From positions 1-47,959 of the forward strand of contig JBDKRC010000063.1 of NCBI GenBank assembly GCA_039683575.1: 47,959 bases of DNA, written 5' to 3'. Positions 30,094-38,528 of the stretch are shown here, piece by piece. The DNA comes from Armatimonadia bacterium (lineage in GTDB: Bacteria > Armatimonadota > Zipacnadia > Zipacnadales > UBA11051). The notes below the pieces were generated by a model. It was given only the letters and a program-made list of their open reading frames with translations, searched no databases and was not told the DNA's origin. The translations under genes were made by a program, and so were the position numbers. Position 1 is the first letter of the stretch. Every line of letters starts with the position of its first letter.

Positions 30094-30128
30094 CAACTGA
30101 CTACTGCTAGCTGACTACTGTCAACTGA
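30094..30128. repeat. Five-unit 7-nt-period CTG array
   Basis: CAACTGA CTACTGC TAGCTGA CTACTGT CAACTGA. Confidence 0.85.
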
Positions 30129-34327: not shown

Positions 34328-34548
34328 GTAGGGCGGTCCGGCTGTAGGGCGGGCTGTAGGGCGGGCTGTAGGGCGGGCTGTAGGGCGGGCTGTAGGGCGG
34401 GCTGTAGGGCGGGCTGTAGGGCGGGCTGTAGGGCGGGCTGTAGGGCGGGGGCTTGTACCCCGCCGGCCGTTATCACCGACCACGCCGCGCTCTCACCGGC
34501 GGCCCTGCCGTCATCGCCGACCCCGCGTAGTGCGGGCGTCCCGCCCGC
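34328..34548 (+). repeat. Composite REP element containing nine tandem 12-mers (GGCTGTAGGGCG, 34340-34447)
   Basis: Direct count; ends in the GGGGCTTGTACCCCGCC hairpin plus tail, then a GTAGTGCGGGCG REP at 34524-34548. Confidence 0.95.
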
Positions 34549-34661: not shown

Positions 34662-34739
34662 AACTCAGTTACCATTTGACAGCGAACAGTTGTCAGTTGG
34701 CGGTCGTCTCACTTGGCGGCCCGCGTACCATGACAGGAC

Positions 34740-34837: not shown

Positions 34838-34872
34838 CAGTTTCCAGTTGTCAGTAGTCAGTCTTCAGCAGC
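34838..34872. repeat. Five-unit 7-nt-period CAG array
   Basis: CAGTTTC CAGTTGT CAGTAGT CAGTCTT CAGCAGC. Confidence 0.85.
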
Positions 34873-34914: not shown

Positions 34915-35003
34915 GGAGAGATGACCGAGCGGCCGAAGGTGCGCGTCTGGAAAGCGCGTGTACCCAAAAGGTACCGTGGGTTCGAATCCCACTCTCTCCG
35001 CCA
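34915..35003 (+). tRNA. tRNA-Ser(GGA)
   Basis: CGCGT-CTGGAAA-GCGCG; long variable arm; CCA. Confidence 0.96.
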
Positions 35004-35006
35004 TCT

Positions 35007-35041
35007 ATCAGGTATCAGATGTCAGGCTCCAGGGATCAGAT
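35007..35041. repeat. Five-unit CAG heptamer array upstream of the four-helix-bundle gene
   Basis: ATCAGGT ATCAGAT GTCAGGC TCCAGGG ATCAGAT. Confidence 0.88.
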
Positions 35042-35062
35042 TCTGAGAAAGGCGGGGGAACC

Positions 35063-35434
35063 GTGGCTTCATTCGAGGAGTTGCTGGTCTGGCAGAAGGC
35101 TCATGCCCTGGTATTGCAGATCTACCCGTTGTGCAGCGGCCTGCCCTCACACGAGAAGTACGCCCTGGCCGACCAGCTTCGCCGTGCTGCCACCTCGGTT
35201 CCGACCAACATAGCAGAAGGCTACGGTACCGGCATGGACGGTCTTTTCCTGCGTCACATAGCCATAGCGCAGGGCTCTTTGGCCGAGACCCGCTACCTGC
35301 TTCTCCTATGTCGTGACTTGAGCTACGTTGGCATTGATGATTACGAGGCCGTTTCGGCCCTATCCGGCGAAGTCTCCCGCCTCCTAAGCAAATTCCGCCA
35401 GGCCATCCAAACCCGCCTCAACAACCGCTCCTGA
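35063..35434 (+). CDS. Four-helix-bundle protein (TIGR02436 / 23S-rRNA-IVS-protein family, Avd-like)
   Basis: F..L.VWQKA..L...IY......P..EKY.L.DQLRRAA.SVP.NIAEG......F...IA.GSL.E signature; GTG start after GGGGG. Confidence 0.95.
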   Translation: MASFEELLVWQKAHALVLQIYPLCSGLPSHEKYALADQLRRAATSVPTNIAEGYGTGMDGLFLRHIAIAQGSLAETRYLLLLCRDLSYVGIDDYEAVSALSGEVSRLLSKFRQAIQTRLNNRS

Positions 35435-35527
35435 GCTTTAGCCTTTGCCTTTGGCCTCTGCCGTCTCCGGACCCGCCGTTGCCTTTCGCCGTTTCTGACC
35501 CCTGATCCCTGAACCCTGACTCCTGCC
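35435..35527. repeat. Hexamer-period GCCNYT tract followed by a five-unit CTG heptamer array (35493-35527)
   Basis: GCCTTT GCCTTT ... GCCTCT GCCGTC ... GCCGTT GCCTTT; TTCTGAC CCCTGAT CCCTGAA CCCTGAC TCCTGCC. Confidence 0.85.
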
Positions 35528-35805
35528 TCACCGCTGTGCTAACCGGGGAACTGGCGGTTCCCTGTACTCACAATCCGCCTTAGTGAGGGCTAATCCCCCG
35601 CCCCCGGCCTCGTCATGTAGGGTCTGACCCCAGCGGGCAGCGTTGAAGGTTGGGTCCCGCGCAAGGCAATCTTGGTGAACCCCGCCAGGTCCGAGAGGAA
35701 GCAACGGTAACTGAGTAATTGTCTGTGCCGCGGATCACCTGACCCGAGCCAGCCACCGGGGTAACGCCTGGATGGCGTTGTCAAAGGTAGGGTGCACAGT
35801 GGTGA
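35528..35805 (+). ncRNA. ffs: Large (Alu-domain-containing) bacterial SRP RNA
   Basis: Helix 8 GAACCCCGCCAGGTCC-GAGA-GGAAGCAACGG; 5' TCACCGCTGTGC pairs with 3' GCACAGTGGTGA; Alu CCCTGTACTCACAATCCGC; lies upstream of dnaX. Confidence 0.93.
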
Positions 35806-35966
35806 ATCAGGGGTCAGGTTTCAGGGGTCAGGTTTCAGAAAGGACCCAGACGCACTCCTCCACGCTTTTCCCCATCTGGAAGGAATACTTCCTCAATACG
35901 TCGAACCGCACTGGGACAGATCCGAATCTGGACCTGATCCCTGACACCTGAGCCCTGAAACCTGCT
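35806..35966. repeat. Inverted pair of five-unit heptamer arrays (CAG 35806-35840; CTG 35932-35966) enclosing a putative promoter
   Basis: ATCAGGG GTCAGGT TTCAGGG GTCAGGT TTCAGAA ... ACCTGAT CCCTGAC ACCTGAG CCCTGAA ACCTGCT-ATG. Confidence 0.9.
35879..35906 (+). promoter_or_regulatory. Sigma-H-like promoter upstream of dnaX
   Basis: GAAGGAATA-N12-GTCGAAC. Confidence 0.65.
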
Positions 35967-38018
35967 ATGGCCTACCAGCCTTTTACCCTAAAATACCGCC
36001 CCCGCACCTTCGAAGACGTCATCGGCCAGGATCACGTCAGCCGCACCCTGCGCAATGCCATTGCCGCCGGGCGGCTTGTCCACGCCTACCTCTTCACCGG
36101 CCCCCGCGGCACCGGCAAGACCACCATGGCCCGCATCCTCGCCCGCGCCCTCAACTGCGTCAAGGGCATCACCCCCGACCCGTGTGGCGAATGCGACATG
36201 TGCCTCGCCGTGTCCGCCGGCCGCGCCCTCGACGTCATCGAGATCGATGCTGCCAGCCACACCGGCGTGGACGCCATTCGCGAGCTCCGCGAGCAAGTCA
36301 AGTACAGGCCCGGCGAGGGCCGCTGCAAGCTGTACATTCTTGACGAAGTCCACATGCTCAGCATCTCGGCCTTCAACGCGCTCCTCAAAACCCTCGAGGA
36401 GCCGCCCGCACACGCCTATTTCGCGCTGCTGACCACGGAGATGCATAGGGTCCCCGAGACCATCGTCTCGCGCTGCCAGCGCTTCGAATTCCGCCCCATC
36501 TCCATCCCCGAAGTCATCGGTGCCCTGCGCAAGATCGCCGACAACGAGGGCTTGCAGGTCCAGGACGCGGCCCTGCACGCCATCGCCACTGCCGCCGAGG
36601 GTGGCCTGCGCGATGCCCAGAGCATTCTGGAGCAGGTTGTGGCCTTCAGCGAGGGCGAGATCACCCTCGAGGTCGCCAACCAGGTCCTCGGTGTAACCGA
36701 CACCGAAACCCTCGCCCGCATTGCCGAAATAGTCGCCGCCCACGACCTCCCCGCCGCTTTCACGATGGTGGATCACCTCGTGGCGGAGGGCAAAGACCTC
36801 GGTCGCCTGATCGAGGACCTCACGCTCTTTTTCCGCGACCTCCTGCGCCTGGCGCTGGGGAGTGGGGGAGAGAACTGGCTGCAACTGGGCGCCGAGGGCC
36901 AGGAGCGCATGCGCGGCCTTGCCCAGACCATCGGCTCTGACGCACTCCTCGCCGCCGTCCACGAACTCGCCGAGCTGCGCGGCAAGATGAAGACCAGTTC
37001 CCAGCACGCACTGCTGCTGGAGTTGGCCCTCGCCGAGCTAACCCAGCCCCGGCAAGCTGCCGTTAGCCTGACCGCCGTTAGTCCGTCCCTGCCGGGCGCC
37101 CCTCAAGCGCGTAGTGCGGGCGTCTCGCCCGCCTCCGGCATGGCAGGCCTGCCGCCTTCGCCTCAACTTGGCCGGACGGGCGTCCCGCCCGTCGCTCCGC
37201 CCAGCATGGGTGCTCCTCCTCCGCGTACTGCGGGCGTCTCGCCCGCTCCGACAGCCGCCGCCGCGCAGGACGACACCGCGCCCGTGGAGAAGCCCACCGA
37301 ACCTGACGTCCCGGCCCAAAACGTCGTCGGCGACCTCACTTGCGCTGCGATCTACAGCCGCTGGCCGTTGCTGCTTGAGCAACTGAAGCGTATGAACTAT
37401 CAAAACGTTCGCGCCTTGCTCCTCAACGCGGTCCCGACCCGGGTCACTGCCGATTCAATCACGGTCAGCTTCCCGAGCCGCTGCCAGTTCCACCACAACC
37501 AGCTCAAATCATCGCATTGCGACACGGTCAGCAAGGCGCTGCACAAGCTATTCGGCCAGAACCTCCGTGTCGAATGCCGCCTCTGCCCGGCCGGCGAGGA
37601 GCCCGTCGTTCCGGCGGATGAGGCCGTGGCTTCTCCTCCGGTAGCAGTCGCTCCGATGCCGCCGCCTGCGGCCGTCGCTCCCGTTCCGGAGCCCGTGGCC
37701 ACCGCGCCCGCTCCCGAACCGGAGCCGGCGCTTGAGCCCGTACCCGCTCCGGAGCCCCCGCCGGCGCCTGAACCGCCGCCCCCTCCGGCCTCGTCGTTAG
37801 AACCCGACCCGGCCGACAGTGGGAGCGGTAACCAGACGGCGACCCTCACCGACCAGCCATCCGGTGTGCTTGCCTCGCCGGAACCATCCTCCCCGCCCCC
37901 GGCGTTGCAGGATGAACCCGAAACACCCGCGGCGGGCGGTCTCACTGCCGACGCCGTCGTTGAACAGACCCTTAGCCTTTTCGAGGGCAGCCAGGAAATC
38001 TTGCCCCCGAACCAGTAA
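35967..38018 (+). CDS. dnaX: DNA polymerase III subunit gamma/tau
   Basis: KYRP.TF.DVIGQ, GPRGTGKTT, C..C zinc site, EIDAAS, DEVHMLS..AFNALLKTLEEPP, SRC; Pro-rich linkers. Confidence 0.98.
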   Translation: MAYQPFTLKYRPRTFEDVIGQDHVSRTLRNAIAAGRLVHAYLFTGPRGTGKTTMARILARALNCVKGITPDPCGECDMCLAVSAGRALDVIEIDAASHTGVDAIRELREQVKYRPGEGRCKLYILDEVHMLSISAFNALLKTLEEPPAHAYFALLTTEMHRVPETIVSRCQRFEFRPISIPEVIGALRKIADNEGLQVQDAALHAIATAAEGGLRDAQSILEQVVAFSEGEITLEVANQVLGVTDTETLARIAEIVAAHDLPAAFTMVDHLVAEGKDLGRLIEDLTLFFRDLLRLALGSGGENWLQLGAEGQERMRGLAQTIGSDALLAAVHELAELRGKMKTSSQHALLLELALAELTQPRQAAVSLTAVSPSLPGAPQARSAGVSPASGMAGLPPSPQLGRTGVPPVAPPSMGAPPPRTAGVSPAPTAAAAQDDTAPVEKPTEPDVPAQNVVGDLTCAAIYSRWPLLLEQLKRMNYQNVRALLLNAVPTRVTADSITVSFPSRCQFHHNQLKSSHCDTVSKALHKLFGQNLRVECRLCPAGEEPVVPADEAVASPPVAVAPMPPPAAVAPVPEPVATAPAPEPEPALEPVPAPEPPPAPEPPPPPASSLEPDPADSGSGNQTATLTDQPSGVLASPEPSSPPPALQDEPETPAAGGLTADAVVEQTLSLFEGSQEILPPNQ

Positions 38019-38464: not shown

Positions 38465-38528
38465 GGCGTTGCCTCTGCCGTTGCCGTCTCAGAACCTGAT
38501 CCCTGATCTCTGATTCCTGAACCCTGCT
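38465..38528. repeat. Hexamer GCCNYT tract plus five-unit CTG heptamer array (38494-38528) directly before recR
   Basis: GCCTCT GCCGTT GCCGTC; ACCTGAT CCCTGAT CTCTGAT TCCTGAA CCCTGCT. Confidence 0.88.

Follow-up and report, generated by a model that had tools for sequence, protein, structure and literature searches.

A four-helix-bundle gene between inverted heptamer arms at a tRNA-Ser/SRP RNA junction: a patchily inherited cassette resembling ORF-bearing IVSs outside rRNA

The closest described system to the locus presented here is the intervening sequence (IVS) in helix 45 of the 23S rRNA of Coxiella burnetii, in which an S23p open reading frame (ORF) is accompanied by GACAGAT heptamers and a 28-bp stem, with RNase III cleavage at the first repeat (PMC4990558). 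ORF-bearing IVSs of this kind lie within 16S or 23S rRNA genes and are cut out by RNase III with no religation, and it was in rRNA IVSs that the four-helix family first came to notice. The family has also been noted in rRNA insertions of CPR (PMC11270868). Heptamer arrays are, in turn, known from intergenic positions. The GGGAATC arrays of Xanthomonas and Nostoc show a four-unit preference, which was linked to G-quadruplexes, and the same start/stop polarity as the arrays discussed below (Rehm 2015, PMC4692102); the supplement to that work places a four-unit array 6 nt after bccP, directly before XCC0516. The TAACTGA arrays of Beggiatoaceae end at start codons, and it was proposed that a repeat-binding protein could itself be a mobile element (MacGregor 2015, PMC4679880). 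Term searches found the four-helix protein named in neither main text, and these papers propose quadruplexes or unknown binding proteins, unlike the four-helix partner considered here. A literature search that covered few subscription journals returned no paper treating such a gene and its arms outside rRNA as a class; the parts are known.

Three further systems offer partial parallels. In TRAP attenuation, a ring protein reads periodic RNA motifs with one fixed motif and spacing, whereas motif and spacing vary among the cassettes described here. In REP/RAYT systems, dispersed intergenic repeats are tied to a gene that they flank, but the RAYT is a nuclease and the REPs are single palindromes, whereas no catalytic domain was found in the protein described here. 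Finally, in the cryo-EM preprint on Avd, a protein of diversity-generating retroelements (DGRs), five protomers bind an 11-bp stem-loop that has flipped bases (10.1101/2023.10.23.563531).

The window, by which we mean the whole stretch of 47,959 nt that was analysed, is contig C63 of a draft genome of 6.2 Mb and 63.5% GC. It holds a TIGR02436/PF05635 four-helix-bundle gene, assigned by profile matches and a predicted structure (35063-35434; GTG start, 123 aa; features are on the forward strand unless stated), which, as the preliminary description had claimed, lies between tRNA-Ser(GGA) (34915-35003) and ffs, the gene for a large bacterial SRP RNA (RF01854, 165 bits; 35534-35799). The start position is the same as in the orthologues of two relatives (G002 and G030), and a G-run at 35054-35058 is its likely ribosome-binding site. 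The gene is bracketed, as that description also had it, by five CAG posts at a period of 7 nt upstream (arm A, 35009-35039, beginning 5 nt past the tRNA 3' end) and five complementary CTG posts downstream (arm B, 35495-35525, ending 8 nt short of ffs). From the stop codon to arm B, the sequence runs through loose 6-nt units resembling GCCTTT or GCCGTT (35436-35494), and similar words flank other genes of the family. Beyond ffs follow arm C (five CAG posts, 8 nt past ffs, 35808-35838) and arm D (five CTG posts, 35934-35964), which ends 2 nt before the dnaX ATG at 35967 and so leaves no room for a Shine-Dalgarno site; ybaB and recR come after dnaX. The full chain thus reads A-gene-B-ffs-C-gap-D-dnaX, with arms C and D forming a gene-less inverted pair (z -5.3).

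Further arrays are scattered through the window. Solo five-post arrays stand 5 nt past tRNA-Ser(CGA) (CAG, 34838-34868) and 9 nt before the recR start (CTG, 38496-38526), and two on the reverse strand, both in the CAG form on the sense strand, lie 3 nt past the fsa stop codon (30097-30127) and beside a four-unit GAAAAC[A/G] array (972-1002). The array past tRNA-Arg(CCT) (34666-34696) has five posts, one of which is a CAT variant, so that exact matching scores three. Altogether the window has 12 arrays of at least three posts, 8 of them with five; the six further five-unit arrays listed in the preliminary description are all real, but its list omits four others, of 3, 3, 4 and 11 posts. The longest is a near-perfect CTGACCC array at the contig end (3-75), and because long arrays probably break assembly, the long classes counted below may be underestimated. 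Between tRNA-Arg(GCG) and tRNA-Arg(CCT) there is also a 12-nt tandem repeat of about nine copies (34341-34449), which a short different stretch replaces in one RNA run (X1). Spacer bases had been described as unconserved, a view that we reject: within five-post arrays, A follows CTG in 153 of 188 units and C is the last base in 124 of 188, and the spacers fall into two sub-words, CTGA[A/C/T]CC and CTGACAA.

The product of the four-helix gene matches TIGR02436 at 110.4 bits (cut-off 24) and PF05635 at 114.6 bits (cut-off 33.8), and its structure model consists of four helices with a pLDDT of 95.6. The model matches Xanthomonas Xcc0516 (2GSC; TM 0.85, rmsd 0.7, 34% identity) and BT_0352 (2RLD; 25% identity), whose entries hold five chains each, as well as the Avd structures 8UB7 and 4DWL (TM 0.75-0.81), Avd being an RNA-binding pentameric barrel; the proposed sharing of a fold with solved pentamers therefore stands. 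Xcc0516 and BT_0352 lend the window protein a shape and no mechanism. When four copies, one short of a pentamer, were folded together, the self-binding score was 0.66 against 0.35 for the best control, with contacts agreeing at 82% or more and pLDDT of at least 85; among reference cases, 20 of 30 solved pairs and 1 of 23 single chains attain the mark, and the likeness to 2GSC may itself cause the pass. The window protein is thus predicted to be a ring oligomer like Xcc0516. Residue 56 is a threonine here and in the G002 orthologue, and an arginine in the other 12 aligned family members.

The label 'Avd-like' holds for the four-helix bundle and fails for Avd itself. The Avd model NF033474 scores 30.1 bits, below its cut-off of 80, identity to Avd is 13-14%, no reverse transcriptase adjoins the gene, and Avd binds a stem-loop rather than spaced triplets. 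None of seven true Avd genes carries arms, and we accordingly reject membership of a DGR. The only RVT_1 match of the genome is on contig C320, where it adjoins a true Avd (101 bits) in a DGR without heptamer arms (G000:C320:1-2481). In agreement with the preliminary description, the cassette contains no transposase, nor was a reverse transcriptase found inside it. The genome has three TIGR02436 genes in all, and the other two carry other words: GGGAATC, at a copy with an internal stop, and the irregular GCGGGAAC.

Folding predictions give the two arms of the gene different partners depending on how much of the transcript is considered. With 35004-35533 folded alone, arm A closes on arm B (z -1.9), so that the earlier suggestion of a transcript folding back around the ORF is borne out to a modest degree; in the full stretch, however, this pairing is out-competed, B being predicted to pair with C and A with D, and A-B appears only in a transcript ending by 35540. 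Calculated duplex energies are -35.6 kcal/mol for A-B, -66.5 for B-C, -57.8 for C-D and -41.0 for A-D, arm C being the best predicted partner of arm B. For the downstream arm, pairing across the SRP RNA is thus predicted to be more favourable than pairing around the gene. Arms B and C each lie 8 nt from the SRP RNA, and the prediction extends its terminal stem in register. Across relatives, ungapped pairing of the ffs flanks involves 14-19 of 20 positions in all five genomes that bear the gene at this site and in G028, with differing words, and at most 11 of 20 in 17 of the other 18 genomes.

Occupancy of the junction is patchy. Among 31 genomes, ffs scores above cut-off in 24, in 21 of which tRNA-Ser(GGA) lies no more than 1.5 kb upstream (another gene follows tRNA-Ser(GGA) in G001, and G003, G013 and G017 give no usable view of the junction). 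The presence/absence comparison that the preliminary description had proposed finds the four-helix gene in 5 of the 21, a gap of 57-135 nt in 10 and other content in 6, namely arms alone (G028), an arm with a HicA-type gene pair (G021), a possible remnant (G025) and three other inserts. In G021 (L008:775-1500), one repeat arm precedes the two genes; the second encodes a HicA-type toxin (PF07927), and the first has no convincing Pfam match. In G028, a four-helix gene stands between two tRNA-Arg genes of the same tRNA cluster, at a junction other than that of ffs (G028:C33:35400-39700), and the next two junctions of the cluster hold paired gene-less arms with the same word as those of the gene. 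A tree of the five genes at the site needs three changes and has open forks, and is compatible with one old insertion followed by losses as well as with several insertions.

Arms also change between close relatives. The G002 orthologue has kept five posts on both arms with changed spacers, whereas other genes at the orthologous site have periods near 9, 10 and 12, compared with about 7 in the window. A close strain, represented in two RNA runs of one sample (X3 and X4; 1 difference in 356 nt), diverges from the window at 35011, right after the first CAG of arm A, where a different CAG array takes over in register; this variant array has at least five posts, gives way to at least 450 unlike bases and was not found in the present assembly. 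Pieces of the four-helix gene are present in these two runs as well and show no differences, while other genes differ by about 3%. In a soil run from another study the junction is of the window type, at 17 differences in 396 nt. Contigs covering the four-helix gene in RNA libraries are no proof of its transcription.

The association of gene and arms extends across the family. A profile search gave 187 family genes, 167 without near-copies, of which 139 have 250 nt on both sides; arms were scored as inverted periodic arrays of at least three posts on both sides. They flank 87 of the 139 genes; the same scoring finds them in 1 of 139 shuffles and around 18 of 1500 ordinary genes from this genome. 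At the level of genomes, at least 30 array matches occur in 35 of 76 with the gene and in 3 of 75 without it, and the median number of matches per Mb is 1.0, 1.7, 8.5 and 20.9 for 0, 1, 2-3 and at least 4 gene copies (rho 0.59 between array density and copy number), with the limitation that kin among these 151 phylum genomes are not independent. The reversed pattern provides no negative control for the matches, since many words hold both patterns. The association between arrays and four-helix genes that had been anticipated is therefore present both gene by gene and genome by genome.

What the cassettes share is looser than a fixed motif. Among the 87, the period is 7 in 63, 8 in 14, 9 in 5 and another value in 5 (range 6 to 14), and the median arm complementarity across 86 of them is 0.84. 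The 63 cassettes of period 7 display 19 kinds of triplet, and the contention that triplet and period alone are conserved does not hold across the family. There is no TRAP-like constancy of triplet and spacing, only a loose core in common: [A/C]C[T/C], directional and on the downstream arm, is found in 57 of the 63 period-7 words (permutation mean 39, maximum 49) and holds 3.5 bits of information, against 2.3-2.8 in three nulls. The repeat word tracks protein identity, with six of seven letters agreeing in 1-3% of pairs below 50% identity and in half of those at 60-70%, a pattern that shared descent would explain as well as co-evolution.

Within this genome, the arms follow the boundaries of host genes. 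On the basis of our own gene calls (4711 CDS), 86 of 88 arrays with at least four posts are intergenic. Of the 78 with neighbours on both sides, 45 have their outer end (the 3' one when read as CTG) no more than 10 nt from a gene boundary, compared with a mean of 11.5 and a maximum of 22 in 10,000 random placements in the same gaps; the inner end comes as close in only 5 of 78. The excess at the outer end means that arrays in the CAG form come just after stop codons or the 3' ends of RNAs, and those in the CTG form just before starts, a polarity displayed by some 90 dispersed arms. The GAAAAC[A/G] family has the same polarity (20 of 32 within 20 nt, 4.3 expected); its roughly 43 arrays, such as that at 1020-1048 of the window, are mostly of four units with fixed flanks and stand just past stop codons. 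GGGAATC arrays and CTGATAA units are present as well. With the published GGGAATC and TAACTGA repeats these arrays share the intergenic location, the 7-nt unit, a length near four units, the polarity and the occurrence of some inverted pairs.

Direct inward-facing pairs of arms number only four in the genome, around the four-helix gene, the empty ffs-dnaX gap, an empty tRNA-Arg/tRNA-His gap and acpS. The last is a housekeeping gene with a four-post CAG/CTG array facing it on either side, resembling a cassette that carries host cargo (G000:C223:41605-42085). Bracketing of host genes as a rule was rejected, as ffs alone among 4758 features has both a 5' and a 3' arm, with 0.5 expected. Eight CTG/CAG arrays lie within 11 kb of the four-helix gene against 0.16 expected, but we do not generalize this to local spread in cis, because G002 shows no arrays beyond its two arms over 4.6 kb and because the arrays were themselves the reason for choosing the window.

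Taken together, the gene and its arms are a widespread, patchily inherited cassette, like an ORF-bearing IVS but not within rRNA. With the Coxiella IVS they share the protein family, heptamers beside the ORF, inverted repeats at the termini (which give the IVS a stem of about 28 bp) and a sporadic distribution, here at 5 of 21 sites. They differ in that the cassette lies between two separate RNA genes, at the tRNA-Ser/ffs junction, rather than within an rRNA helix, that the predicted partner of the downstream arm lies beyond the adjacent host RNA, and that about 90 related arms are scattered through the genome. We give a probability of roughly 0.55 to the reading that this is an IVS-type TIGR02436 cassette whose arms act as stems for RNase III and in this way prevent the insert from doing harm, and whose predicted pentamer is tied to the making or upkeep of the repeats. 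This reading draws on the arms of the family genes and the genome-level association, the partial occupancy of the junction, the gene-less arms of G028 and the array swap between strains, and also on the placement of array ends, the pairing of the ffs flanks, the precedent in Coxiella, the tracking of word and protein, and the presence of an RNase III gene in this genome. In mechanistic terms, arm A would pair with arm B during transcription; once ffs has been transcribed, B would pair with C, lengthening the SRP terminal stem, which could let the SRP RNA be cut from a longer transcript. RNase III would cleave the arm duplexes, and the four-helix protein may bind the repeats.

Several observations count against the IVS-type reading. 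Arms A and B are complementary at only 22 of 31 positions, most arms are solo and thus have no near partner to pair with, and the window protein is net neutral, with 12 K+R and 12 D+E. The largest repeat family of the genome, GAAAAC[A/G], has no matching four-helix gene in the assembly; G029 combines many arrays with no gene found, at 77% completeness; and G018, the exception among the genomes compared above, has an extended SRP stem (16 of 20 positions) without a four-helix gene. Furthermore, no RNA contig skips the cassette, there being no joint across 35004-35533 in five runs. A spliced-out cassette was rejected on the same ground, although the RNA data are assembled contigs, in which a missing joint says little and cut sites cannot be seen.

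The preliminary description had offered a different mechanism, a ring in which each subunit of a pentamer takes up one repeat of single-stranded RNA or DNA, in the manner of TRAP; selection would then fix the count at five. Its starting point is sound: genome-wide, CAG/CTG arrays of period 7 number 89, 30, 48, 5 and 1 for 3, 4, 5, 6 and 7 posts, whereas at other periods (4-6 and 8-14) counts decay steadily with post number, chance threes numbering about 70, so that the geometric distribution named in advance as evidence to the contrary is absent. The G002 orthologue is also in its favour, having kept five and five posts at 59% protein identity (pN 0.26, pS 0.69), as is the directional core in the period-7 words. 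A mode at five is, however, a matter of the register counted. Five CTG posts amount to four full periods and three bases, and in the [A/C]CT register, one base earlier, this genome has 42 fours and 18 fives. In 24 array-rich genomes, our own pick from 32 with at least 50 matches, the same register gives 1385, 784 and 489 arrays of 4, 5 and at least 6 units; exact fours outnumber fives in 22 of them, this genome included, and fives lead in 2. By best triplet, the 126 arms of the family divide into 20, 51, 34, 6 and 15 with 3, 4, 5, 6 and at least 7 posts, only 11 of 87 cassettes have exactly five on both arms, and the GAAAAC[A/G] and GGGAATC families of this genome peak at four. The expected mode thus appears for CTG/CAG posts, and for C[C/T] cores (23, 46 and 18 arms with four, five and six among 121, five having been dropped for fewer than three cores), and is four by [A/C]CT or best triplet.

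The C[C/T] count itself is inflated by C-rich flanks, an extra in-register core occurring at 0.30 against a background of 0.25 and at 0.37 against 0.35 in two of the three families counted here. Three further results speak for five. Four-post arms have an additional near-unit more often than five-post arms (15 of 41 versus 4 of 31, p 0.03); across 23 loci, longer periods bring no loss of units (p 0.63) while the span rises (p 0.04); and the drop after five is steeper than that after four in 15 of the 24 genomes. Against the ring stand array tails of more than 20 units in G017, the periods near 7, 9, 10 and 12 of genes at the orthologous site, the four-unit array upstream of Xcc0516 itself (PMC4692102) and the grip of Avd on a stem-loop through flipped bases (10.1101/2023.10.23.563531). 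A universal five is rejected as stated, one triplet per subunit is no general rule given the register-dependent mode, the 19 triplets and the periods of 6 to 14, and the ring with a selected count is, in our judgement, unlikely. What is firm is that arm length is peaked at 28-36 nt with a long tail, which fits a processing stem as well as it does a five-site ring.

The placement of arms at gene boundaries with fixed polarity could also reflect a post-transcriptional network of the host, in which a repeat-binding protein, that of the window or another from the host, or the repeats themselves, would tune translation start and stop and RNA decay, with the four-helix gene autoregulated through its own arms. 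Control of this kind was proposed for the TAACTGA repeats (MacGregor 2015, PMC4679880), and, by our own gene calls, a Shine-Dalgarno match is rarer in genes with a 5' arm (9 of 31) than overall (2443 of 4540, 54%). Words and sites nevertheless turn over among relatives, even between strains, and half of the 151 phylum genomes lack the gene, which makes such a network quite improbable. Least probable of all is that these are simple DNA-level repeats, arising by slippage, gene conversion or perhaps quadruplex words and tolerated only at gene boundaries, with the four-helix gene a passenger: long perfect arrays do exist, one family here has no matching gene, and the GGGAATC four-unit preference was linked to quadruplexes (Rehm 2015, PMC4692102), but most words here (CTGACAA, GAAAAC[A/G]) have no G-tracts, and slippage leaves the inverted arms, strand polarity, directional core and genome-level link unexplained.

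The IVS-type reading brings together three subjects: a large protein family with structures but no function, the S23p-type IVSs, and the heptamer arrays of Xanthomonas, Nostoc and Beggiatoaceae, which have had no protein partner. The contributions of this locus are a core motif common to the cassettes, an SRP RNA bridged in six genomes by a predicted stem and, at one base, the exchange of an arm between strains; the link between gene and arms makes the binding of each protein to its own arm directly testable. A bolder proposal, which we consider doubtful, gives each subunit of the TIGR02436 pentamer one [A/G]G core to read on the purine-rich arm, the five sites spanning four periods, and has the pentamer and a host enzyme add new arms at RNA boundaries such as stop codons, tRNA 3' ends and SRP RNA ends. 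If this were true, gene and arms would together form a mobile element without a transposase, one that surrounds host RNAs with processing stems of its own making, and arm-laying pentamers would account for the surplus of heptamer repeats long noted in bacterial genomes. Should the protein indeed drive the repeats, it would represent a new route by which selfish elements spread.
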